A stretch of 64,000 bases of DNA, from assembly GCA_964576275.1 (NCBI GenBank), contig CAZNUN010000004.1:121779-185778 (forward strand), given 5' to 3'. A program made the position numbers and the translations under genes. Numbering within the stretch: position 1 is the first letter of the stretch; each line of letters opens with the position of its first letter. Positions 12,068 to 31,260 of this stretch are shown here, in pieces. The DNA comes from an uncultured bacterium (GTDB lineage Bacteria; Fidelibacterota; UBA2242). The notes under the pieces are model-generated. The model did no database searches. It had not been told where the DNA came from and saw only the letters and a list, made by a program, of their open reading frames with translations.

Positions 12068-13201
12068 GTGCATCGTGAAATGAATAAAGCCTGCGAAAAC
12101 GAAAAAGAGTACGCCATCCTGACTCAGGCGATCCGGCAGGTGGCCGAAGCGATCGTCGTTACGGATTTACACGATCACATCATCTTTGTGAATAATGCGT
12201 TTTTGAATCTCTATGGCTACACCAGAGAAGAACTGATCGGGAAAAATATTCAGTTCCTGTGGTCACAAAACACATTACCTGAAACCCTGATGAATGTACA
12301 CAGGGCTACTTTAGAGGGAAGCTGGCAGGGTGAACTTATTAACCGGCGGAAAAACGGTGAAGACTTCCCAATTGCACTGTCCACTTCAGTAGTGTACAAC
12401 GATCAGCATGAACCCGTTGCCCTGATAGGGATTATCAGCGACATAACCAAACAGAAACTGAAAGAACGCGATCGCAAAGTCAGTGAAGAGACAATTAGAC
12501 GCCAGCAGCGTCTGGAGTCTATTGGAACACTGGCGGGTGGTATTGCCCACGAGATCAACAATCCCTTGACCGGAATTATCAATTATGCGCAGATTATTTA
12601 TGAACGTTTGTCGGATGAGACACTCAGGGAATTTGCCCGCGGAATTATCGATGAAGGCGAACGGGTCGCGGGCATTATCCGCAATTTACTGACTTTTTCA
12701 CGTCAGGAGCAGGAAGGCATGACTCTCGAAAAGATGAGTGATATTGTCCAGACCGCCCTTTTGCTGGTTGACAATCTGATCCATAAAGATTTAATTAATC
12801 TGACGGCTGTCGTACTGGAGGATTTACCCAAAATAAACTGTCACCGTCAACAGATCACCCAGGTTATTGTTAACCTGATTATGAATGCCCGCGATGCCCT
12901 GAATGCCAAATTCAGTGGTTACGATGAAGAAAAATTAATCGAAATTAAGTCGTACCGAATCGAACGCGAAGATCAATGCTGGTTAAGAACCGAAATCCTC
13001 GATCATGGGATCGGTATAGATGAAGATACTTCCGGCAGCATCTTCGATCCGTTCTTTACGACTAAACCTCGCACGGATCGTTCCGGCATGGGGCTTTCGG
13101 TTTGCTTTGGCATTATCAAGGAACATGGCGGCGAAATTTTCATGGAAACCGAGCCCGGCCAATACACGCGGGTTTACTTTGATTTGCCCTGCCTGAAATA
13201 A
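12068..13201 (+). CDS. PAS-domain sensor histidine kinase (cytoplasmic)
   Basis: PAS (VVTDLHDHIIFVNNAFLNLYGYTREELIGKN...). H-box LAGGIAHEINNPLTGI. ATPase DHGIGIDEDTSGSIFDPFFTTKP...GMGLSVCFGIIKEHGG. GTG at 12068, alternative ATG at 12080. Confidence 0.85.
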   Translation: MHREMNKACENEKEYAILTQAIRQVAEAIVVTDLHDHIIFVNNAFLNLYGYTREELIGKNIQFLWSQNTLPETLMNVHRATLEGSWQGELINRRKNGEDFPIALSTSVVYNDQHEPVALIGIISDITKQKLKERDRKVSEETIRRQQRLESIGTLAGGIAHEINNPLTGIINYAQIIYERLSDETLREFARGIIDEGERVAGIIRNLLTFSRQEQEGMTLEKMSDIVQTALLLVDNLIHKDLINLTAVVLEDLPKINCHRQQITQVIVNLIMNARDALNAKFSGYDEEKLIEIKSYRIEREDQCWLRTEILDHGIGIDEDTSGSIFDPFFTTKPRTDRSGMGLSVCFGIIKEHGGEIFMETEPGQYTRVYFDLPCLK

Positions 13202-13216
13202 ACTCTGAAAAAAATA

Positions 13217-13246
13217 TTGACTCGCAATCCAAAAATGATTTATATT
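13217..13246 (+). promoter_or_regulatory. sigma70-like promoter candidate for the ilv-leu operon leader
   Basis: TTGACT (13217-13222), 18-nt spacer, TATATT (13241-13246). Located about 25 nt upstream of the leader ORF. Confidence 0.5.
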
Positions 13247-13269
13247 AATACCGATTTTGAAATGAAATT

Positions 13270-13353
13270 ATGAATCAGTTTAAAAACATATTAAGCGTTG
13301 TAGTAATCCTGGGCATCATTATTATCCTAATAGGAGGCGAAGGGGTTTTTTAG
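13270..13353 (+). CDS. ilv/leu operon leader peptide (27 aa, MNQFKNILSVVVILGIIIILIGGEGVF)
   Basis: 14 of 27 codons encode Ile (7), Val (4) or Leu (3). Codons 7-21 read ILSVVVILGIIIILI. The stop codon is embedded in the first copy of a 15-nt repeat that competes with the downstream terminator. No obvious Shine-Dalgarno sequence. Confidence 0.7.
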   Translation: MNQFKNILSVVVILGIIIILIGGEGVF

Positions 13354-13376
13354 ACGCACACCACTAAATAATTCTT

Positions 13377-13407
13377 AAAAACCCCTTCCGAAAAGAAGGG
13401 GTTTTTT
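13377..13407 (+). terminator. attenuator (rho-independent terminator) of the ilv-leu leader
   Basis: AAAAACCCCTTC (13377-13388), loop CGAAAA, GAAGGGGTTTTTT (13395-13407). This gives a 12-bp stem ending in a six-T run, 40 nt upstream of the ilvD start. Confidence 0.85.
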
Positions 13408-13447
13408 AGTTACAGAGGCGAATAAATATGAAAAGGAATGTATAATT

Positions 13448-15145
13448 ATGCAGAGCGATCAGGTAAAAAGGGGCGTCGAAAGAGCGCCGCACCGCTCCCT
13501 TTTGCGGGCGGCCGGAGTTGCCGAGGAAGATTTTGGGAGACCATTCATTGGCATCGCCAATTCTTACAATGACATTGTTCCTGGCCATGTAAAACTGGAC
13601 GTCGTCGGCGAAATGGTAAAGAAAGCCGTCATTCGAGCCGGCGGCCGGCCTTTCGTATTTAATACGATCGGCGTTTGCGACGGAATTGCGATGGGGCATG
13701 CCGGGATGCGCTACAGTCTGCAAAGCCGCGAACTGATCGCCGACTCCGTGGAAACAATGGTAAAGGCTCATTGTTTCGATGGCTTGGTGTGCATACCGAA
13801 CTGCGATAAAATCATTCCCGGTATGCTGATGGCGGCTGTACGACTGGACATTCCGACGATCTTCGTTTCCGGCGGCCCGATGAGAGCCGGCCGGGCAAAC
13901 GGCAGAAAAGCCCTCGATTTGATTTCGGTCTTTGAAGGGATTGGCGCTTATCAGGAAGGGCTGATTGACGAAGCTGAATTGACCGAAATCGAGCGCCGCG
14001 CCTGTCCCGGCTGGGGCAGTTGCTCGGGTCTGTTCACCGCCAATTCGATGAATTGTCTGTGTGAGGCGCTGGGGATCGCTCTCCCCGGCAACGGCACGAT
14101 TCTGGCCGAAGACAAACGCCGGCAGAAGTTGTACCGGGAAGCCGGGAAACGGATCATGGAATTAGTGCAAAAAGAGGTTCGTCCGTCGCAAATCATTACC
14201 CGCGATTCGCTGGACAATGCCATTGCGCTCGATATGGCCATGGGCGGTTCGACCAATACCGTTTTACATCTAATGGCGGTGGCTAATGAAGCCGGCATTA
14301 AATATTCGCTTACCAGAATTGATGAAATTTCACGTGGTACGCCGACGCTTTGTAAAGTAGCGCCTTCTTCTCAATATCATATGGAAGACGTCGAGGCGGC
14401 CGGCGGTATGAGCGCTTTGCTCAACGAACTTTTCCGGAATAATACTTTTATCAATAAAGATTGTCCGACTGTAACCGGCAAGACTATCGCTGAAAATGTC
14501 GCCGGGAAGCGGATACTTAACGAAACCGTCATTCACCCTCTCGAAAAAGCTTACGCTCCGACTGGCGGCCTAGCCATTTTAACCGGCAATCTGGCTCCGG
14601 AAGGAAGTGTGGTGAAATACGCCGGAGTATCGGAAAAAATGAAGGTATTTGAAGGTCCGGCTGTTATCTTCGAGAGTCAGGAAGAAGCCTGCGAAGGAAT
14701 TTTGGCCGGTGATGTCAAGGCTGGTGATGTCGTCGTAATCCGCTACGAAGGCCCACGCGGCGGCCCCGGTATGCAGGAAATGCTTTCGCCGACTTCCTAT
14801 ATCATGGGACGCGGATTGGGCGAAAGCGTAGCCCTGATTACCGATGGGCGATTCTCAGGTGGAACGCGCGGAGCCTGTATTGGCCACGTCGCCCCGGAGG
14901 CGGCCGCCGGAGGGCCGATCGGCCTTCTGAAAAACGGCGACCGCATCCAGATTGATATTCCAAAGAAAAGATTAGAAGTGCGCTTGTCGCCGGAAGAATT
15001 GAATGCCCGCCGCGCGCAGTCGCAACCGCGTCCGCCGCGGATCACTCACGGTGTCATGGCCCGTTACGCCGAGATGGTTTCCTCGGCCAGCGATGGCGCC
15101 GTTTTGAAATATAATTTCCGTAAGGAGAAAGGAGCCGGTCAATGA
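13448..15145 (+). CDS. ilvD: dihydroxy-acid dehydratase
   Basis: [56 protein letters not shown]. 565 aa. Confidence 0.95.
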
Positions 15146-16878
15146 AAGGTGCTGAAATATTGATTGACGCTTTGATGAATGAAGGCGTTGACACCGTTTT
15201 CGGTTATCCGGGAGGCGTCGTTATCCCGATTTTCGACGTGCTTTATGATAACAGGAAAATCAAGTTTGTGTTGACCCGCCATGAACAGGGCGCTACACAC
15301 GCCGCCGATGGCTACGCCCGGGCTACCGGCAGAGTGGGAGTCTGTTTAGTCACCTCCGGACCAGGCGCTACCAATACTATAACCGGCATCGCCAACGCGA
15401 AAATGGACTCTGTACCGATCGTTGTGATCAGCGGCCAGGTGGCCACCACCAATATCGGCACGGATGCCTTTCAGGAAACCGATATGGTCGGTCTGACCCG
15501 TTCGATTAGCAAGCATAATTATTTAGTTAAAAATGTGGAAGAATTGCCAAAGATACTGAAAGAAGCTTTTTTCATAGCCCGGAGTGGGCGTCCGGGTCCG
15601 GTGGCCGTTGATATACCCGTCAATGTCTCCAATGGATTTCTGAAAAATTATAAGTATCCGACAGACATTTCTCTACCCGGATACAAACCGGTCACCAACG
15701 GCAACCAGAAGCAGATTGAAAAGCTGGCCGAAGCCATAAAAACCGCAAAAAAACCACTGCTCTTTACCGGCGGTGGAATAATCTCCGCCAATGCTTCGGA
15801 AGATTTGTTGGCCTTGCTCAATAAAACTAACATTCCGATCGTGATTACTCTGATGGGATTGGGCTCGGTGCCGGTCGATTATCCCACTTTTCTTGGTATG
15901 CCCGGAATGCACGGCACAATGGCGGCCAATCTGGCGCTGGCCGAATGCGACTTGCTGATTGGTATTGGGGTGCGCTTTGACGACCGGGTCACCGGTCAGC
16001 GCGAGCAGTTTGCCACACAGGCCAAAGTCGCGCATATTGATATTGATCCGGCGGAAATCGGCAAGGTTATCAAGCCCGATATTCCGGTCGTCGGCGATGC
16101 CCGGAAAATTCTTCAGGAATTGGTCAGTAAAGTCCATCCGCGCTCCAGGGATGAATGGAACAAACGCACGGAATCCTGGAAGACTCAGTATCCGATAACC
16201 TACGATCAGTCCAATGAATCTGAAATTTTACCGCAATATGTCATCGACCGCCTGAATGCGGTTGCCCCGGAAGACAGCATCATCGTTACCGATGTCGGTC
16301 AGCATCAGATGTGGGCCGCCCATTATTATCTGCACCGTCATCCGCGCGCATTCATATCATCCAGCGGACTGGGGACGATGGGATTCGGCCTGCCGGCGGC
16401 CATGGGCGCGGCGGTAGGTTGCCCCGAACGCACCGTGATCGCCATATCCGGCGACGGCAGTATTCAAATGAATATTCAGGAATTCGCCACCTGCTCTATT
16501 AATAAAATTCCAGTGAAAGCAATCATTCTGAACAATTCCTATCTCGGTATGGTGCGCCAGTGGCAGGAATTATTTTGGAATAAACGCTACTCGGCAACCT
16601 GTCTGAAGTACGGCTATAATTGTCCGCCGGAGGGCGACAATTCGCCAGAAAATTATCCGTCGGATTATATCCCGGATTTTCTGAAAACCGCCGAAGCCAA
16701 CCGTATAAAAGGCTTCCGCGCCATCAAGCCGTCTGAAGTGGACGACGTTCTGCGGGAAGGCATTCGCCAACCCGGTCCGGTCATCATGGAGTTCGTGGTC
16801 AAGAGCGGTGAAAATGTATATCCAATGGTGCCGTCAGGCAAACCGGTTTCCGCCGCTCTGCTTGGGAGGTCGTCATGA
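15142..16878 (+). CDS. ilvB: acetolactate synthase, large (catalytic) subunit
   Basis: [64 protein letters not shown]...[16 protein letters not shown] overlap with ilvD. Confidence 0.95.
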
Positions 16879-17363
16879 AAGAGAAACACACCATAATCGT
16901 GACCGTCACCAACCGCGTCGGCATTCTGGCCCGGATCACCGGTTTGCTGGCCCAGCGCGGTTACAATATCGAGAGCGCCATCGCCGCCCCGACCGAAGAC
17001 CCGGATGTTTACAAAATCATTCTGGTAGTCATGGAAAGCGACGAGAACGTGGAGCAGATTACCAAGCAGCTCAATAAACTCATTGATACGATCAAAGTCA
17101 CCGATATTTCGCATAAAAATAACTATATCGTGCGCGAATACATCATCGTAAAAGTGTCGGTCACGCCCCGCACGCGCGTCGAAATCCTGGAACTCGTAAG
17201 GATTTTCGAAGCCCGCCCGATTGATCTGGCCACCGATCACCTGATCGTGGAACTGACCGGGCACGTGCGCAAAATTGACCGCTTTATCGAATTGCTCAAG
17301 CCCTTTGGCATCAAGGAGTATGTACGCAGCGGCGAGTTCGCCATGACCGAATATAATCAATAA
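16875..17363 (+). CDS. ilvN: acetolactate synthase, small (regulatory, ACT-domain) subunit
   Basis: HTIIVTVTNRVGILARITGLLAQRGYNIESA (ACT). 162 aa. ATGA overlap with ilvB. Confidence 0.9.
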   Translation: MKEKHTIIVTVTNRVGILARITGLLAQRGYNIESAIAAPTEDPDVYKIILVVMESDENVEQITKQLNKLIDTIKVTDISHKNNYIVREYIIVKVSVTPRTRVEILELVRIFEARPIDLATDHLIVELTGHVRKIDRFIELLKPFGIKEYVRSGEFAMTEYNQ

Positions 17364-17380
17364 AATAAAAGGAGTTTCGA

Positions 17381-18382
17381 ATGTCAGTCAAGTTGTATTA
17401 TGACAAAGATGTTACCAGCAGTGCCCTGAAAAATAAAACCATCGCCGTGATCGGATACGGCAGTCAGGGGCATGCGCAATCACAAAACCTGCGGGAAAGC
17501 GGCTATAAAGTCATCATTGCCGAGCGGCCGGATTCACCGAATTTCGCGCTGGCCGTCAAGCATGGTTTTACGCCGGTCAGCGCCGCTGAAGCCGCCCGAC
17601 AGGCGGACGTTATCCAGATTCTGACGCCGGACGAGGTCCAGAAACGCGTCTTTGAGCAGGAAGTCAGGCAGTATCTTACCAAGGGCAAAGCTCTGGTGTT
17701 TTCCCACGGCTTTAACATTCATTTCAAACAGATCGTGCCGCCGGCCGATGTGGACGTTTATATGGTCGCTCCGAAAGGGCCTGGTCATCTGGTGCGCCGT
17801 CAGTATGAAATCGGCGCCGGCGTGCCTTCGCTTTTCGCAGTCTATCAGGATGTCAGCGGACAGGCCCGCAATCTGGCGATGGAACACGCCTGCGGCATTG
17901 GCGCCGGGAGAGCCGGAATTATCGAAACGACTTTCCGCGAAGAGACCGAGACCGACCTTTTCGGCGAACAGGCCGTGCTGTGCGGCGGCGTATCGGAATT
18001 GATCAAGGCCGGATTCCAGACCCTGGTCGAGGCCGGCTACCAGCCCGAGATCGCTTATTTTGAATGCTGTCACGAGCTGAAACTGATCGTTGATCTAATT
18101 TACGAAGGCGGTCTGGCCGGAATGTATTATTCCGTCAGCGATACGGCCGAATTCGGCGGAATGACCCGTGGCCCGCAGATTATTGACAGCGCTACCAAAC
18201 AGCGCATGAAAACCATGCTACGCGCCATTCAGACCGGCGAATTCGCCAAAGACTGGATTCTGGAAAATCAGGCCGGGCGCCCAACCCTGAACGCCTATCG
18301 TCAGGAACACCAGGAATTGTTGTTGGAAAAAGTAGGCCGGGAATTGCGGGATATGATGCCCTGGCTCAAGAAAAAAGGATAA
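17381..18382 (+). CDS. ilvC: ketol-acid reductoisomerase (class I)
   Basis: [21 protein letters not shown] Rossmann motif, [26 protein letters not shown]. 333 aa. Confidence 0.95.
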
Positions 18383-18385
18383 AAT

Positions 18386-19981
18386 ATGAATCGCAAAATC
18401 CGGATTTTCGACACGACCCTGCGGGACGGGACCCAAGCCGAGACCATCAGCTTTTCGGCGGAAGATAAACTGCATATCGCTAAACGTCTGGACGAGTTCG
18501 GAATTGATTACATCGAAGGGGGCTGGCCGGGTTCGAATCCGAAAGACATGGCTTTTTTCCAGTTAGCCCGTGAGACGCAATTCAGACACGCCCGCATCGT
18601 GGCTTTCGGCTCCACCAAGCGCGCCAGAAACACCGTCGAAGACGATCAGAATATCCGCTTCCTGCTCGAAGCCGAAACGCCGGTCGTGACCATTTTTGGA
18701 AAATCCTGGATTCTGCATGTCGAAAAGGCTCTGCGCATCACCACCACCCAAAATCTTGAATTGATCCACGACAGCGTCGCTTATCTGAAAAGCAAAGGTA
18801 AGGAAGTGATTTACGACGCCGAGCATTTTTTCGACGGCTATAAGGATAACGCCGCCTATGCGGTCGAAACTCTGGCTGCCGCGCAGGCGGCTGGCGCCGA
18901 CCTGATAACCTTGTGCGATACCAACGGCGGCACACTGCCGTCAGAAGTCTCGCGCATCGTCGCGGCTGTCCGTCAAAAGATCAGCCTGCCGCTCGGTATT
19001 CATACCCATAATGACAGCGGTCTGGCAGTGGCCAATAGCCTGACGGCCGTCGAGGCCGGATGTGTTCTCGTCCAGGGTACGATTAATGGTTACGGCGAAC
19101 GCACCGGAAACGCCGACCTGTGTTCGGTGATCCCGAATCTGCAGTTAAAGGCCGGCTATCAGTGCATCCCGCCGGAGAATCTGACGCAATTGACCTCCGT
19201 ATCGCATTACGTCAGTGAAATCGCCAACCTGTCTCACCCGAACGGTTTGCCCTTTACCGGGAGAAGCGCCTTCGCCCACAAAGGCGGAGTGCATGTCAGT
19301 GCTGTGATGAAAGACCCGCACAGTTACGAGCATATCGAGCCAGAACTCGTCGGTAACAGCCGGCGGGTTCTGGTCTCCGATCTCTCCGGGCAGAGCAACA
19401 TCGTTTTCAAAGCCCGGGAACTCAATATTGACCTCAACCGTCACCAGGATAAAATTCCCGAAATAGTAAATCGTCTGAAAGAACTTGAGAATCTTGGCTA
19501 TCAATATGAAGCCGCCGAAGGTTCTCTTGAGCTTTTAATCAGTAAAATCAAATCCGAATACCGCGAGTTTTTCAATCTGAAAGGATTCAGGATTTTGATC
19601 GAGAAAAATGAAGACGGCGAACAACGTTCCGAGGCCACGATCCGCATGGAAGTGGACAATCAGGTCGAACACGCCGCGGCGGAAGGCGACGGCCCGGTCA
19701 ATGCTTTGGACAACGCCCTGCGCAAAGCCCTGACCAAATTTTACCCGGAGATAAACGCAATGAAGCTTTCCGATTATAAAGTCCGGGTGCTGAACGCCCG
19801 GGATGCCACGGCGGCCAAAGTCCGCGTTCTGATCGAATCCACTTCCGATGGCGATTCCTGGGGCACGATCGGAGTTTCCGAAAATATCATCGAAGCCAGC
19901 TGGCAGGCACTGACGGAGAGCATTTCCTATTTTTTAATGCAGAAATATAAATCCAAAACGGCGGAGGCTCAGCATGTCTAA
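18386..19981 (+). CDS. cimA: (R)-citramalate synthase (LeuA-family, CimA clade)
   Basis: [55 protein letters not shown] matches the N-terminus I remember for the Geobacter/Leptospira-type CimA clade (GGWPG-NPKD). [14 protein letters not shown]-terminal LeuA-dimer regulatory domain. A canonical leuA lies immediately downstream. Confidence 0.75.
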
Positions 19982-21518
19982 ACGCATCATTCTCTTTGAC
20001 ACAACCCTGCGCGACGGCGAACAAAGTCCGGGCGCGTCTCTGAAAGTCACCGAAAAACTCATTATCGCCCGTCAGCTCGCCAACCTGGGAGTGGATGTGA
20101 TCGAAGCCGGTTTCCCGATTGCCTCGGAGGGCGATTTTGAAGCGGTCAAACAGGTCGCTCAAAATATTTCCGGACCGAAGATCTGCGGCCTGGCGCGCAC
20201 TCACGAAGCCGATATTGATCGCTGCTGGGAAGCCGTCAAATTTTCCGCCAAACCGCGCATCCATACCTTCATCGCCACTTCCACCATTCACTTGGAAAAG
20301 AAACTGCGCAAGACCGAAGCCGAAGTTATCGAACTGGCTTACAAGGCCGTCCGGCATGCCAGAAAATACTGCGACGACGTAGAATTTTCTCCCGAAGACG
20401 CCGCCCGCACCAATCTCGATTACATGTGCGCCGTTGTCCAGGCCGCCCTGGAAGCCGGCGCCACTACGATCAACATTCCCGATACGGTGGGTTACGCCGA
20501 GCCGGATGAATTCGCCGGACGGATTCGCTACCTAATCGAGAAAGTTCCGGCAATAAAGCAAGCCATTATCAGCGTACATTGCCATAATGATCTCGGCAAT
20601 GCCGTGGCCAATTCACTGGCGGCGGTGCGCGCCGGTGCGAATCAGATTGAAGGCTGTATCAACGGCATCGGCGAACGAGCCGGAAATGCCTCCCTGGAAG
20701 AAATCATCATGAATCTGGTAACACGCAAGGATTTCTTCAATGCCGAAATCGGCGTCAATACCCGTGAGATTTACAAGACCAGCCGGCTGGTTTCCAATCT
20801 GACCGGTTTGAGCGTCCAGCGCAACAAGGCAATTGTCGGCCAGAATGCCTTTTCGCACGAGGCGGGAATTCATCAGCACGGCGTCCTGAGTAGTAAAAGC
20901 ACCTACGAAATCATGACCCCCGAAGAGGTCGGCTGGGAAGGCGAGAATCTGGTGATCGGCAAACACTCCGGCAAACATGCCGTGTCGGCCTTGCTGGAAG
21001 AAGAGGGCTTTCGTCTCGACCAGGACCAACTCAATCAGATCACCAACAAAGTCAAAGATCTGGCCGACAAACAGAAACAGGTTGCCGCCGAAGACATTCT
21101 GGCTATCGCCCGCGATGTCACCCTGCAATTGCCCGAAAAGGAACAGCGCATCCATCTGGAAGAATTTACTGTGACCACCGGCAGTGGTCTGACGCCGACT
21201 GCCTCGGTGCGCCTGACAGTTGACGGTGAAAAAAAGATCGGCGCCGCGATCGGCGATGGGCCGATTGACGCCATCAGTAACGCCATCTGGAGCATCATCG
21301 GGCCTTCCCTGCAGTTGGTGGACTATAATTTAAAGGCTATCACCGGCGGTACAAACGCTCTGGCGGACGTCTCGATTAAATTAGCCGATCGAAGCGGCAA
21401 TCTCTTCACCGCTCGGGCGGTGGATGAAGATGTCATCAAGGCCAGCGCTTTGGGCATTATCAAAGGCATCAATAAAGCCTTCGGCACCGAGCAAAAAATC
21501 CATCCGCATGCGATCTAA
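19974..21518 (+). CDS. leuA: 2-isopropylmalate synthase
   Basis: [50 protein letters not shown]-terminal regulatory domain. 8-nt overlap with cimA. Confidence 0.9.
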
Positions 21519-21540
21519 AATATTATCACAGGAGCACAAA

Positions 21541-22803
21541 TTGGGCTTAACCATAACCGAAAAAATCCTCGCCGTCCACAGTGGACGCGAGAGCGTCGCG
21601 CCAGGCGAGCTGATTGATTGTGAAATTGACACCATCATGTGCCACGACGTGACTACGACGCCGGCGATCGAAATGCTGGAAAGATACGCCATCCCGAAAA
21701 TCTTCGATCCGGAACGTGTCGTCATTATGCCGGATCATTTCGTGCCGAACAAGGACATCAAATCGGCTGAAATGGTTGCCAAAATCCGGCGCTGGGCGCA
21801 GACGCAGGGAATCACGCGTTTTTATGATATCGGACGCCACGGCGTCTGTCATGCTTTGCTGCCGGAACAGGGCTTTGTCACACCCGGGAAAACTATCGTC
21901 TGCGGCGACAGTCACACTACCACGCACGGCGCGCTGGGCGCCTTTTCAACCGGCATTGGCAGCACCGACCTGGCGGCCGCTCTGGCGACCGGTAAACTCT
22001 GGTTCAAAGTGCCGGAATCCATGCTGTTCGTCCTTTCGGGGAAATTGCCGGAAGGCGTTTTTGCCAAAGACCTGATCCTGAAAATCATCGGACTGATCGG
22101 CGTTGACGGAGCGCTCTACCGCGCTATGGAATTTACCGGAGAAGTCATCGAAGAACTTTCGGTCGAAGGACGCATGACGGTCTGCAATATGGCGATTGAA
22201 GCCGGCGGAAAATCCGGCATTATCAATCCGGATGAAAAAACTTTGGAATACGTCAATAATCATAGCCATGAGCCCTTCACCGTTTACCGCAGTGATCCGG
22301 ACGCCGACTATTGCCGGACAATGGGAATTGATGTCAGCGGACTGGAGCCGGTGGTGGCTCTGCCGCATTTGCCGAGCAATGTCAGATTCGTTCGTGAAGT
22401 CCAGGACGTGCGCATTGACCAGGCCTATCTCGGCAGTTGCACCAACGGTCGGATCGAAGATTTACGCATCGCGGCCCAGATCATACAAAACCGGACGGTG
22501 GCGCACGGAACCCGTATGATCGTCGTCCCGGCGACCACCGAAATCTGGAAACAGGCTAATCACGAAGGGCTGCTGGATATTTTCATGTCTGCCGGAGCGA
22601 CCGTCAGCACGCCGACCTGCGGCGCCTGTCTCGGCGGACACATGGGAATTCTGGCCGCCGGCGAACGCTGTATCAGCTCGACCAACCGCAACTTTGTCGG
22701 CCGCATGGGCAGTCCGAAATCGGAAGTTTTTCTGGCCAGTCCGGCAACCGTGGCGGCTTCGGCTGTCACCGGGAAAATCACCGACCCGCGTCAATTTTTA
22801 TAG
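21541..22803 (+). CDS. leuC: 3-isopropylmalate dehydratase, large subunit
   Basis: [26 protein letters not shown] and PTCGACLGG (Fe-S Cys ligands). Start chosen at the TTG at 21541, 4 nt after AGGAGCA. The ORF track's 21424 start would overlap leuA by 95 nt. An ATG at 21508 is an alternative. Confidence 0.9.
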
Positions 22804-22812
22804 GAGTTTATC

Positions 22813-23301
22813 GTGCAGGGAAACGCTCACGTTTATCAAAAAAACCACATCAACACCGACGAAATCATCCCGGCGCGCTACTTAGTTTCCGACCAGGAAG
22901 CCGAGCTGGCCGGACATGCCATGGAAGACCTGGATGTCAATTTTGTCAAGAAGGTACAAACCGGTGATTTTATTGTCAGCGGCGACGACTTCGGCTGTGG
23001 CAGTTCGCGCGAACATGCCGTCTGGGCTCTGCGCGGAGCCGGCGTCCGGGCTGTGATCGCCAACTCGTTCGCCCGCATCTTTTACCGCAATTGTATCAAT
23101 AACGGCTTTTTGGCGATCGAATGTAAAGGCGCAGTTTCCCGGATTCAGTCCGGCGACCGGCTGGAAATTGATCTGGCAGCTGGCAAGATCATCAATCTGA
23201 CTCGTCAGGAATCTTACGTATTTCAACCTTTTCCGGAATTTGCCCGTGAAATTATCGAATCCGGCGGTCTGATGGAAAAAATAAAAAAGGAGTTGACCTG
23301 A
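22813..23301 (+). CDS. leuD: 3-isopropylmalate dehydratase, small subunit
   Basis: [17 protein letters not shown]. 162 aa. GTG start after AGGAG. Confidence 0.9.
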
Positions 23302-24402
23302 ATGGAAACTAAAAAGATCGCCATACTGGCCGGGGATGGCATCGGCCCGGAAATCATGGCAGAAGCCCTGAAAGTACTGGACATCGTGCAGAAGAAAGGC
23401 GGAATGCGATTCGAATTTCGGGAAGCCCTGGTAGGCGGCGCGGCCTGGGAAAAATATCAGCGGCATTTGCCGGAAGAAACTGTGCGCGTTTGCCGTAAAA
23501 GTGACGCGATTTTGTTCGGCGCGGTCGGCGGGCCGGTGCAGGAACAGCTCACTCCCAAATGGTGCGGCGTTGAGGTCAATGCTCTCCTCGGTTTGCGGAA
23601 AGCCTTCGATTTATACGCCAATCTGCGCCCCTCAAAATTATATCCCGCGCTGGTTTTCGCCTCGCCGTTGCGAAAAGACATTGCCGAAAAGGGGTTTGAC
23701 ATCCTCGTAGTCCGCGAACTGACCGGCGGAATTTATTTCGGCCAGCCGAAAGGCCGCAGAGGCGCGGGCGACGATGAGGCAGCTTTCGACACTATGATTT
23801 ATACGCGGCGGGAAATCGAACGCATCGCGCATGTGGCTTTCAAGGCCGCGCGCCGGCGGCGCCGAAAAGTCACCTGTATCGACAAGGCTAATGTGCTGAC
23901 CACTATGGTTTTCTGGCGCGAAGTCGTATCCGAAGTCGCCAAACAGTATCCGGATGTAGTCTGGGAGCCGATGTATGTGGACAACGCCTCGATCCAATTA
24001 GTAAAAAATCCGGGTCAGTTCGACGTTATGCTGTGCGGCAATATGTTCGGCGACATCCTTTCGGATGAAGCCGCGGCCATCGCGGGCAGTCTGGGTATGT
24101 TACCCAGCGCCAGTCTGGCGGAAGGCAGTTTTGGTTTGTATGAACCGGGCGGCGGTTCGGCGCCTGATATCGCCGGACAAAATATCGCCAATCCGATTGC
24201 CCAGATTCTGAGCGCCGCAATGATGCTGACCTATTCATTCGATCTGCCTGAGGCGGCTGACGCCATTGAAAAAGCCGTGGCCAATGTTCTGCAGGCCGGA
24301 TACCGCACGGCCGATATTATTGACGAAGGTTGTGTTAAAGTCGGCACCAATGAAATGGGCGACCGTATCGCGGCCGAATTGCAGAAAATTTTAAAAGAGT
24401 AG
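23302..24402 (+). CDS. leuB: 3-isopropylmalate dehydrogenase
   Basis: [50 protein letters not shown]. Confidence 0.95.
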
Positions 24403-24415
24403 GTGAGTTAATAAC

Positions 24416-24447
24416 AGCCGCACTTTCGGGATATTTTTAGTGCGGCT
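24416..24447 (+). terminator. possible operon-end hairpin after leuB
   Basis: AGCCGCACT (24416-24424) and AGTGCGGCT (24439-24447) form a 9-bp stem with a 14-nt loop. No clean T-tract follows, so the terminator call is weak. Confidence 0.35.
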
Positions 24448-24505
24448 CGCTGTCCGTTTGTCGTAAATCCCGGCGGATGGTAAAAAGAAAAATGAGAGGA
24501 AATTG

Positions 24506-29428: not shown

Positions 29429-29565
29429 GTCATACGATAGTCATTAGTCGCTGCGCGGCGTCATTCATAGTCATTCGGTAGTCATTCAGTAGTCAGGAAT
29501 TGTCAGGGATGGTCAATAAGGCATTAGGGCATTCATGCAATCAATCATTCAATCAGTCATGCAAC
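29429..29565. repeat. phased degenerate repeat array (GTCATTC-type core every 10-11 bp, decaying to GCATT/CAATCA units)
   Basis: GTCA(T) cores start at 29429, 29440, 29460, 29470, 29481, 29492, 29502 and 29512, then GCATTAGG, GCATTCAT and CAATCATTCAATCAGTCATGCAAC. GTCATTCGGTA (29470-29480) recurs exactly at 39061-39071. Confidence 0.7.
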
Positions 29566-29760
29566 AATGTAATTTGAAATTTTCCATTTGAATTCTGCCC
29601 CGAAGGGGCTTCGCCGGAGAAATCTCCCCGCCTGACGGGTAACGGGTCGAATTTTACATCGAGCTTACGTATTGACAGTTACTGTCGGACGATAAGCCCG
29701 GTCTTTTTCCCTTGCGGATTTCGCATTATCATATCTAAATCAGGTCAGCCCTGACAGATA

Positions 29761-31260
29761 TTAATCCGAGCTGAAAAGATTATCCAGCAGATCGCGGACT
29801 TCAGCCGGGTTGGTCAGATGTATATTGTCGGCTCTGACCTGGTAGTTGAAGGCCGCGATTTTATCCTGATTGGAAAATTTTGGCAAAGGGCTTTTGTTGG
29901 TCGTGGCTATATGATTGCCGTTGTCATCGGTGATAATCAATGAAGGCTGAAAAACTCCCGGGCGGCCGATGAATTTCTCCATCAGAGTGATAGCGGCGTC
30001 GTATTCAGATTGGGTGGTGCGTCCGAGTGCTTCGTAATTGTCAATGATCTTATCGTCCCAGGTATAGATCGTCGCGGTACTTTCGGAGATAATCTCTTCC
30101 AGATTATATCCGGTGTGCATGGTGTCATGGCCGGAAGGCATCAGGATGACCTTCCCACCGCCGCCTTCGACATTTGCGGCGTAAACCGGTCGGGCCATAC
30201 CGCTTAACCAACCCTGTAGATTTTTAATAAGGATTTTACCGATTTGAATTGGTGTGATGAAGTGTACCAGACCTCTTTCACGATGACATTGCAAAAGATA
30301 ATAGGGTTCGACACCCGCCCAGAGCATCCGACGACAGGTTTCAGCCAGTGAACACAGATTATCATTCACATGTTTTAATAACACCGTCTGGTTGCGTACT
30401 GAATAACCATGTTTGTGGATGCGATCAATAGCGGCCTTAAACTCCTGAGTGATTTCATGATAATGGTTTATATGGGTCATGAAGTAAACATATTTGCCGG
30501 ATCCGACGGTGGCTCTATCAATAAGTGTAAGCAGATCTTCCGTAACAGCTATCGGAAGAGTCACCGGCACGCGGGTGGCGATCCGGATGATCCGCAGATG
30601 TTCGATTTTGGATAGGCGGTTCAGAACATATTCGAGCCGTTCGTAGCTGATCATCAGGGCATCTCCGCCGGTTACCAGGACTTCGTCAATGTTTGGGTTC
30701 CAGGCAATGTAGAACAGCCCTTTTTCAATGTCCTCGCGGTGGATAGCCGTGCTGCTATCGAGCGATTTGGCGCGTTGACAGTGTGTACAGTACGAGGCGC
30801 AGCTGGTATTTTCGGCGACGAAAAGCGCGACCCGATTTGGATAGCGCTGATAGACCGCTCCGTAACTGCGGTTTTCCTCACTCATGGAATCTTCTCGGCC
30901 GGTTTTTAGAAATAATCTATGGGCTGGGGTTGGTACAGATTCCCAGAAGACCGGATCGAGACGATTAATAGGGTCTTCGCCGGGTAACAGATCAGGATGA
31001 AATGGATTTTCAGCAATCAATGTAGCATAGTAGGGCGTAATCCGCATCGGTTCTTTGCCTTCCGCCCGCATCTCGTTTATCGTGCGAGTAATTTCGCTCC
31101 GCTGATAATCGCTGAGTCGGATTACCTGGCTGAGTTCATTCACATTACGAATGGCATTTTTACTCTGCCAGAGCGGGTCGCGCCATTGCTCGCTGCTGAT
31201 ATTCTGCCAGAGTGGAATCGAATGAAAATCGCGGGGTTGGTGTAAGTAGCTGATCGGCAT
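29761..31260 (-). CDS. KamA-family radical-SAM aminomutase (lysine 2,3-aminomutase-like)
   Basis: CASYCTHCQR (CxxxCxxC). KamA-type N-terminus (WQNISSEQWRDPLWQSKNAIRNVNEL). VLVTGGDALM. AGGAG RBS. 499 aa, so longer than the roughly 416-aa clostridial enzyme. Confidence 0.85.
   Translation of the reverse strand: MPISYLHQPRDFHSIPLWQNISSEQWRDPLWQSKNAIRNVNELSQVIRLSDYQRSEITRTINEMRAEGKEPMRITPYYATLIAENPFHPDLLPGEDPINRLDPVFWESVPTPAHRLFLKTGREDSMSEENRSYGAVYQRYPNRVALFVAENTSCASYCTHCQRAKSLDSSTAIHREDIEKGLFYIAWNPNIDEVLVTGGDALMISYERLEYVLNRLSKIEHLRIIRIATRVPVTLPIAVTEDLLTLIDRATVGSGKYVYFMTHINHYHEITQEFKAAIDRIHKHGYSVRNQTVLLKHVNDNLCSLAETCRRMLWAGVEPYYLLQCHRERGLVHFITPIQIGKILIKNLQGWLSGMARPVYAANVEGGGGKVILMPSGHDTMHTGYNLEEIISESTATIYTWDDKIIDNYEALGRTTQSEYDAAITLMEKFIGRPGVFQPSLIITDDNGNHIATTNKSPLPKFSNQDKIAAFNYQVRADNIHLTNPAEVRDLLDNLFSSD

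Follow-up and report, generated by a model that had tools for sequence, protein, structure and literature searches.

A predicted leader-peptide attenuator upstream of the ilv-cimA-leu genes in Fidelibacterota

Transcription attenuation mediated by leader peptides is classical for the enterobacterial operons ilvGMEDA (with the leader ilvL), ilvBN (ivbL), and leu (leuL). An element that appears to follow the same logic is described here in a 64,000-nt stretch of DNA (hereafter, the window) from an uncultured marine member of the phylum Fidelibacterota (also referred to as Marinimicrobia or SAR406), namely, positions 121,779 to 185,778 of contig CAZNUN010000004.1 in the GenBank assembly GCA_964576275.1. 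It precedes ilvD, the first of nine genes (ilvDBNC-cimA-leuACDB) of an operon that makes Ile, Leu, and Val, known as branched-chain amino acids (BCAAs), and is, with a probability of about 0.85, a BCAA-responsive, ribosome-mediated (leader-peptide) transcription attenuator of this operon. As at the ilvL, ivbL, and leuL loci, a short open reading frame (ORF) rich in Ile, Val, and Leu codons is located between a promoter and a BCAA operon and is followed by a predicted intrinsic terminator and a mutually exclusive antiterminator, the choice between which would be made by the position of the ribosome; the mixture of Ile, Leu, and Val codons is multivalent, just as in ilvL. However, no similarity to the enterobacterial attenuators is seen at the level of sequence or covariance models. 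In addition, the Fidelibacterota leader has no Shine-Dalgarno sequence and no conserved protector/pause hairpin (pairing of segments 1 and 2, or 1:2), and its stop codon is placed inside the antiterminator stem, while the operon, which belongs to a different phylum, starts with ilvD, includes cimA, and fuses the ilv and leu genes. Competition between a terminator and an antiterminator upstream of an ilv-leu operon, in response to tRNA charging, is also known from Bacillus subtilis; there, uncharged tRNA is recognized directly by a T-box, whose leader is large and structured and makes no use of an ORF.

In Staphylococcus aureus, ilvD is directly preceded by a terminator and a 26-codon Ile/Leu-rich leader, the “leucine-rich attenuator peptide” (Kaiser et al. 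2018, PMC5794164), which is almost identical in size and position to the leader described here. However, in S. aureus, a ribosome-binding site is located 9 nt upstream of the leader, 52 nt separate the stop codon from the terminator, and it is the poly-U tail that the antiterminator sequesters, not the terminator's 5′ arm (PMC5794164). Suppressor mutations lend the S. aureus leader genetic support, and it works in concert with CodY (PMC5794164), whereas the Fidelibacterota element is a prediction from sequence. Short ORFs with Ile/Val/Leu runs that overlap or precede a terminator hairpin have been described upstream of the actinobacterial ilvB genes (Seliverstov et al. 2005, PMC1262725), along with the upstream ORF of Corynebacterium ilvBNC (PMC10272879). 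In these bacteria, the ORF overlaps the terminator itself, while the leader described here has a distinct covarying antiterminator; the actinobacterial mechanism is disputed, as codon substitutions in Streptomyces coelicolor had no effect. According to a 2010 survey, such leaders had been regarded as confined to Proteobacteria and Actinobacteria, to which the survey added Firmicutes. A full-text literature search for leader peptides in Marinimicrobia found nothing. Candidate attenuators in Bacteroidetes/Chlorobi were reportedly noted by Vitreschak and coworkers in 2004 (FEMS Microbiol Lett 234:357). The predicted mechanism is a classical one, here conserved in a phylum where no earlier description was found.

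The element is encoded on the + strand in the 246-nt gap (13202-13447) between the stop codon of a PAS histidine kinase gene of the same strand (13201) and the ATG codon of ilvD (13448). It begins with a sigma-70-type promoter at 13217-13246, the only recognizable promoter at this locus, which consists of the −35 box TTGACT (13217-13222), an 18-nt spacer, and the −10 box TATATT (13241-13246) and matches the consensus at 10 of 12 positions. The leader ORF (13270-13353) comprises 27 codons (MNQFKNILSVVVILGIIIILIGGEGVF), with the UAG stop codon at 13351-13353 and no Shine-Dalgarno sequence in front of its start. Among the 465 small ATG-initiated ORFs of the window, it is the sole outlier for Ile/Leu/Val: 13 of its 15 central residues are Ile, Leu, or Val, compared to 9 of 15 in the next best small ORF. 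A Shine-Dalgarno-like tract, AGGAGG (GGAGG), is found inside the leader ORF (13332-13337), just 5′ of the first pairing segment, and recurs in most members of the family described below; it may do no more than encode Gly-Gly or lengthen the purine strand, or it may slow the ribosome.

The end of the leader ORF is also the first part of a three-way complementarity. Segment 2 (GAAGGGGUUUUUUAG, 13337-13354) spans the last four sense codons and the stop codon and contains the first copy of the 15-mer GAAGGGGTTTTTTAG (13339-13353), which recurs with 100% identity at 13395-13409 as segment 4. Between them lies segment 3 (UCUUAAAAACCCCUUCC, 13373-13389), whose 12-nt core AAAAACCCCTTC (13377-13388) complements both repeat copies perfectly. 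Segment 3 is a shared strand that can serve either as the 3′ arm of an antiterminator, with segment 2 as the 5′ arm (13339-13354/13373-13388; 16 nt, 94% complementary, 18-nt loop), or as the 5′ arm of a terminator, with segment 4 as the 3′ arm (13374-13388/13395-13409; 15 nt, 93% complementary, 6-nt loop). In ViennaRNA folds, the terminator is a 12-bp stem at 13377-13406 (3′ arm, 13395-13406) with the 6-nt loop, a free energy of −16.2 to −17.1 kcal/mol, and a U-run at 13402-13407; termination at this hairpin is a prediction. The hairpin was missed by a generic terminator scan because five of the six U residues of the U-run pair with the 5′ A-run inside the stem, and this result is not counted as evidence against the terminator. 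The 15-nt direct repeat was not matched in any of 5,000 mononucleotide shuffles of the intergenic region, and even a three-way repeat/complement of only 8 nt appeared in just 23 of 5,000; a chance origin of the leader elements can be excluded. The promoter, the Ile/Leu/Val-rich ORF (verified by translation), the exact repeat with its perfect 12-nt complement, and the 12-bp stem ending in six U residues had all been proposed in the original prediction, made from the letters of the sequence, and each of them was recovered here. The locus displays the structural hallmarks of an attenuator: its position, a BCAA-rich ORF, a predicted terminator, a mutually exclusive antiterminator, and a suitable ribosome geometry.

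Such an arrangement can be expected to operate as follows. Transcription would begin near 13253, judging from the position of the promoter, leaving a 5′ untranslated region (UTR) of ∼16 nt ahead of the 27-codon ORF. The first ribosome would then translate the Ile, Leu, and Val codons (codons 7 to 19) while the RNA polymerase makes the next ∼90 nt. As long as charged tRNA-Ile, tRNA-Leu, and tRNA-Val are plentiful, the ribosome would reach the UAG codon and cover segment 2 (13337-13354). Segment 3 (13373-13389) would then be free to pair with segment 4 (13395-13406), and the resulting 12-bp hairpin with its U-run would stop transcription ∼40 nt before ilvD. Stalling on the BCAA codons would instead leave segment 2 bare, allowing it to pair with the emerging segment 3 in a 12+3-bp antiterminator that includes the stop codon; segment 4 would remain without a partner, and the polymerase would continue into the operon. 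Leader translation, ribosome stalling, termination, and read-through are each predicted in this scheme from the arrangement of the segments.

The codons that could act in sensing are set by the size of the ribosome. Assuming the generally known footprint dimensions, with ∼12 to 15 nt of mRNA covered 3′ of the A/P site, a ribosome with any of codons 7 to 19 in the A site should end 5′ of segment 2. With Ile19 (13324-13326) in the A site, it would reach ∼13338 and leave segment 2 free, whereas at Ile21 it would already cover the G-rich half of segment 2. The difference in reach between these two positions places the effective regulatory codons, by coordinate geometry, at codons 7 to 19 (I L S V V V I L G I I I I; 13288-13326).

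Related loci were gathered by ilvD protein similarity alone, so that the sample is unbiased toward the presence of a leader. It includes 80 loci from species-representative genomes (one genome per species), 80 loci from metagenomes, and 11 loci picked down the list of the closest ilvD proteins, from 90% to 71% identity. The closest ilvD loci in the one-genome-per-species collection come from metagenome-assembled genomes (MAGs) of “Candidatus Neomarinimicrobiota,” with identities of 83% and 71%; loci of Fidelibacterota and “Candidatus Raymondbacteria” come next. In the NCBI taxonomy, the names Neomarinimicrobiota and Fidelibacterota are synonymous, and the phylum belongs to the FCB group, in agreement with the FCB-type genome of the original prediction, while Raymondbacteria is a separate candidate phylum. 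The metagenome search returned only relatives with identities of up to 69%, mostly from other phyla, and yielded a single new leader, L081.

The leader is present at every Fidelibacterota/Neomarinimicrobiota locus sampled (L001 to L004, L006, and L161 to L171), as well as in Raymondbacteria (L005) and in two unclassified MAGs (L018 and L081). With the window, this gives a set of 21 leaders, as the other 19 loci contribute 20 units, two of them from L003. The BCAA-rich ORF, the terminator, and the alternative pairing are kept in every one of these relatives, all sampled through ilvD alone, which is what the original prediction had required of related MAGs. Nothing comparable was found by either an Ile/Leu/Val-run criterion or the family covariance model (R1) at ∼150 loci from other phyla, which include Planctomycetota, PVC, Chloroflexota, Armatimonadota, a Cytophagia MAG, a Gemmatimonadales MAG, and others. 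The gene located 5′ of the leader varies from locus to locus and may encode a PAS kinase, a divergent response regulator, threonine synthase, thymidine kinase, or a divergent ArgR. As the upstream neighbor changes while the leader stays, the element belongs to ilvD and not to the neighbor.

Two of these loci deviate from the common pattern. In L003, a Neomarinimicrobiota MAG, two complete ORF/antiterminator/terminator units (L003:2668-2813 and L003:2841-2979) are arranged in tandem before ilvD; such tandem duplication would be usual for attenuators but not for a gene that encodes a protein. In the unclassified MAG L018, an Ile/Val-rich leader, MQKFNLNIVVNIIILLGRVNVQ (L018:2719-2848), is wired differently: the unit is found 152 nt from ilvD, and the end of its ORF, ACGUGCAA, pairs with UUGCACG in the terminator loop and 5′ arm. 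The L018 leader is detected with an E value of 0.008 by model R1, which was not trained on it.

The 21 leaders share a common anatomy. A promoter of the form TTGA[CT], a 16- to 19-nt spacer, and TAnnnT is located 12 to 47 nt before the leader ATG in 17 of them. In L161, L164, and L005, the −10 box ends just 12 nt before this ATG, which implies a 5′ UTR of ∼5 nt, close to leaderless translation. The leader ORFs have 21 to 34 codons, and their ATG-initiated frame is open across insertions and deletions in 21 of 21 cases, always decoding an invariant ATTATT as Ile-Ile. This constant reading of ATTATT, together with a frame that is never closed by length changes of 13 codons, argues for selection on translation. 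In each of the 21 leaders, 9 to 15 nt separate the start of the purine-rich segment 2 core (GAAGGGG or, in some leaders, GAAGAGG, GAAAGGG, or GAGAGGG) from the final base of the stop codon, which is located inside segment 2 or within 11 nt of it; between the end of the Ile run and segment 2, there are at least 13 nt. An unconserved spacer is followed by segment 3 (ACCCCUUC and its flanks), a short loop, segment 4, and the U-run. While the perfect 15-nt repeat is particular to the window genome, a core of 7 to 9 nt (GAAGGGG) is conserved family-wide. A clear Shine-Dalgarno sequence precedes ilvD in every locus, and none is seen at the leader ORF. Of the 20 units located directly before ilvD, 18 have its ATG codon 17 to 69 nt past the U-run, a distance too short for another promoter and UTR, so that transcription of the operon must pass the terminator hairpin.

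The codon content of the leaders points to the signal. At the 12 codons located at the critical distance (252 codons in the 21 leaders), Ile accounts for 41%, Leu for 22%, and Val for 11%, or 74% in total, while Ala, Phe, and Met, which are freely used by membrane helices, together make up 1.6%. This bias appears to be BCAA-specific and not one of general hydrophobicity. Ile would be the dominant signal, given its 41% share of the critical codons across the family; contributions of Leu and Val would fit an operon that makes all three amino acids. The N-terminal third of the leader peptide is not conserved. Its C-terminal GAAGGGG block encodes Glu-Gly in 11 leaders, while the other 10 read it one base out of register, as Lys-Gly (or Arg-Gly), and all three stop codons occur among the leader ORFs. 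The use of two reading frames for the same block and of all three stop codons indicates selection on the RNA and not on the peptide.

Both helices show compensatory changes above the controls, the second part of what had been anticipated for the relatives. In the alignment built with covariance model R1, 81.8% of the antiterminator cells are paired and 8 of the 16 pairs are changed on both sides. Doubly changed cells number 22, compared to 8.4 ± 2.4 in column shuffles (none of 500 shuffles reached 22), and the covariation score of 0.205 drops to 0.147 or less when the 3′ partners are slid by 1 to 3 columns. The most variable antiterminator pair is formed by the third base of the stop codon and segment 3 (A:U in 9 leaders, G:C in 5, G:U in 3, and U:A in 2); UAA and UAG stops have matching partners, which places the stop codon within the antiterminator stem. 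The terminator was recovered independently by RNAalifold, with 94.5% of cells paired and three compensatory pairs in 20 sequences. The tandem units of L003 offer a further comparison: the cores of segments 2, 3, and 4 read GAAGAGGC / GCCUCUUC / GAAGAGGC, with one position altered in both units, a and b, in all three segments (G>A, C>U, and G>A), as would be expected if segment 3 must pair with both partners.

Folding of the individual helices shows that the two alternatives are evenly matched. Folded alone, the window helices have free energies of −17.0 to −18.1 kcal/mol (2:3), −17.1 kcal/mol (3:4), and −17.6 kcal/mol (a possible 1:2 hairpin, 13295-13357). Each of the 21 leaders can form either hairpin, at comparable strength (2:3, −13.6 to −24.4 kcal/mol; 3:4, −14.7 to −30.1 kcal/mol). 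In a window transcript that ends at 13394, before segment 4, the minimum-energy fold is 2:3, ahead of 1:2, while masking of 13336-13363, as by a ribosome at the UAG codon, yields the terminator 3:4. Once segment 4 is included, equilibrium folds with ribosome masks do not change over to the antiterminator; of the RNAs folded, the truncated transcript alone adopts it.

Several observations weigh against the attenuator. When Ile16 to Ile19 are masked, the terminator is still the favored fold of the full-length RNA at equilibrium; as equilibrium folds always favor it, even in the presence of a stalled ribosome, the switch must be kinetic. The model thus relies on cotranscriptional kinetics, in which the first available partner of segment 3 would have to win, as in textbook systems. 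Per-sequence folds and RNAalifold revealed no conserved pause (segment 1) hairpin that could synchronize the ribosome and the polymerase. The leader start lacks a Shine-Dalgarno sequence, a caveat that the original prediction had correctly raised, while 8 of the 9 operon genes checked have AGGA/GGAG-type sites; together with the ∼5-nt 5′ UTR in three relatives, this means that translation of the leader ORF is assumed. Finally, the core of all three segments is nearly invariant, so a minority of sequences and the ends of the helices supply the covariation, and it was scored in sequences related by descent and in an alignment that the covariance model had fitted to the antiterminator.

The number of segments bears on how the attenuator would work and not on whether it is one. 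In the window, a candidate segment 1 (13295-13311) can pair with 13341-13357; this 1:2 hairpin has a z-score of −2.7 relative to codon shuffles, and the closest relative, L162, uses the same partner (z-score of −1.1), the feature being specific to these two. Together with an invariant 8-bp pairing, AUUAUCCU:GGGGUAAU, which RNAalifold finds in the seven closest leaders between the Ile codons AUUAUCCU (13320-13327) and GGGGU, and with the intrinsic complementarity of pyrimidine-rich Ile/Leu codons to the purine-rich segment 2, it would suit a classical four-segment attenuator, at least in the window genome: segment 1, in either of these positions, would pair with segment 2, an untranslated leader would terminate, and the 1:2 hairpin would pause the polymerase. 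Such a subvariant of attenuation seems rather unlikely, if far from negligible. The 5′ partner of segment 2 shifts across the family, with codon-shuffle z-scores from −2.7 to +2.3 that are scattered around 0; in 20 sequences, RNAalifold detects 0 consensus pairs in the region from the predicted start to segment 2; the helix of the seven-leader clade is worth just −3.7 kcal/mol and shows no covariation; and once segment 3 is present, 2:3 outcompetes 1:2 in the minimum-energy fold. The device conserved across the family therefore appears to have three segments, and the “minimal three-segment” attenuator of the original prediction holds for the family, which has no conserved pairing 5′ of segment 2, but not strictly for the window, in which a 1:2 hairpin is able to form. 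If segment 1 is absent, an untranslated leader should allow read-through and not cause termination. It is a possibility, put forward tentatively and with somewhat more doubt than confidence, that the family represents a stripped-down form of attenuation, with three segments and default read-through, a stop codon in the antiterminator that makes the terminating ribosome the off-switch, and a ∼5- to 25-nt Shine-Dalgarno-less 5′ UTR in a phylum that employs Shine-Dalgarno sequences for its ordinary genes. This form would be the ancestral BCAA regulator of Fidelibacterota, shared with Raymondbacteria.

Other explanations would dispense with leader-peptide attenuation. A protein, a tRNA, or a small molecule could select between the antiterminator and the terminator, with the ORF as a by-product of AU-rich sequence, and the lack of a Shine-Dalgarno sequence at the leader start, the purine-rich GGAGG-GAAGGGG tract as a potential protein-binding site, and the T-box of the Bacillus ilv-leu operon would all be in keeping with such a translation-independent RNA switch. 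This is improbable, given that no T-box or riboswitch is matched at the Rfam gathering threshold in the window or the 19 related loci, there is no conserved structure 5′ of segment 2 to act as an aptamer, the ATG frame remains open across indels in all 21 leaders with ATTATT read as Ile-Ile and the stop in or within 11 nt of segment 2, and the stop codon covaries within the helix. Still less probable is that the small ORF encodes a real 27-residue hydrophobic membrane peptide with its own promoter and terminator, which neatly flank it, and is next to ilvD incidentally, the ilv genes being expressed by leakage or from another promoter. The peptide does resemble a single transmembrane helix (ILSVVVILGIIIILIGG), but its composition is BCAA-specific (1.6% Ala, Phe, and Met in the core), its N terminus is unconserved, and its C terminus is conserved as nucleotides in two reading frames. 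The ORF is always attached to ilvD, whatever the upstream neighbor, its end covaries with the 5′ arm of the terminator, it is duplicated in tandem in one genome, and the 17 to 69 nt between the U-run and the ilvD ATG leave no room for a promoter. Hardly credible, finally, is that the hairpin simply terminates transcription of the PAS kinase gene upstream, perhaps as a bidirectional terminator, and that everything else is coincidence. The hairpin does have an A-run 5′ and a U-run 3′, as bidirectional terminators do, and the kinase gene ends at 13201 on the same strand with no other terminator detected by the generic scan. However, a conserved promoter separates the kinase stop codon from the hairpin, the upstream gene is different or divergent in most relatives that keep the hairpin and the ORF, and neither the three-way complementarity nor the covariation would be explained.

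Comparison with Rfam assigned the leader to no known family. Neither the window nor the 19 related loci matched any Rfam family at the gathering threshold, including Leu_leader, Thr_leader, His_leader, Trp_leader, Phe_leader, and other curated leaders; the best leader family, Phe_leader, scored 19.8 bits compared to the threshold of 55 (E value of 0.57). The Rfam T-box model had no match in 13150-13500 even at E values of up to 10. The element appears to work like the classical attenuators without being a sequence relative of any curated family. A subthreshold full-length alignment (13250-13407; 26.8 bits against a gathering threshold of 80.4, mostly from the terminator) was obtained with RF04180, BTnc231, an intergenic small RNA of Bacteroides thetaiotaomicron, likewise an FCB bacterium (NC_004663.1, 5366995-5367200). 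BTnc231 is an abundant transcript of ∼200 nt with its own start site and terminator and with no small ORF recorded, and it is treated here as not related.

Downstream of the leader, ilvD has the Shine-Dalgarno sequence AAGGAA (13433-13438), 9 nt 5′ of its ATG codon. The 40 nt between the terminator U-run and this ATG leave no room for a separate promoter plus UTR. The genes ilvD, ilvB, ilvN, ilvC, cimA, leuA, leuC, leuD, and leuB follow on the + strand (13448-24402), each exceeding the NCBIfam cutoffs or having a clear best match. Their junctions range from overlaps of 4 to 8 nt to gaps of ∼30 nt, a spacing that suggests cotranscription of all nine. The original prediction had one switch gating nine genes: nine genes were indeed identified, while the gating of all nine would follow only from how closely they are spaced. 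A hairpin with a 14-nt loop and a weak U tail, GCCGCACU...AGUGCGGC (24416-24448), is found after the leuB stop codon (24402), and the next ORF on the same strand begins ∼55 nt further on; with such a weak-tailed hairpin and a same-strand ORF, the end of the operon is not defined. The mechanically assigned start of leuC (21424) overlaps leuA by 95 nt, and homology begins only at residue 43, so the true start is probably near 21547-21550. Elsewhere in the window, a 12-nt unit, TCATGCAATCAA, is repeated in ∼3 copies at 29533-29568, within a 351-nt gap that extends from 29409 to a convergent gene ending at 29761. A scan with model R1 found no second copy of the leader element in the 64-kb window and no sign of a wider regulon in the window or at the ∼150 loci from other phyla.

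In the ocean and in sediments, Fidelibacterota (Marinimicrobia/SAR406) are abundant, but hardly any of them have been cultured, and, to our knowledge, next to nothing is known of their gene regulation. No concept is changed by the present finding. It would extend the documented range of attenuation, mainly Proteobacteria and Actinobacteria with some Firmicutes, to another deep lineage, and the compact, Shine-Dalgarno-less, apparently three-segment design may offer a minimal case for the coordination of ribosome and polymerase without a pause hairpin. The covariance model is ready for use in the annotation of Fidelibacterota genomes, and the leader could serve as a marker in metatranscriptomes, where BCAA limitation in situ would show in the coverage of the leader relative to that of ilvD. 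The conservation of the leader suggests that Fidelibacterota make their own Ile, Leu, and Val and tune the synthesis of these amino acids to tRNA charging in the classical way.

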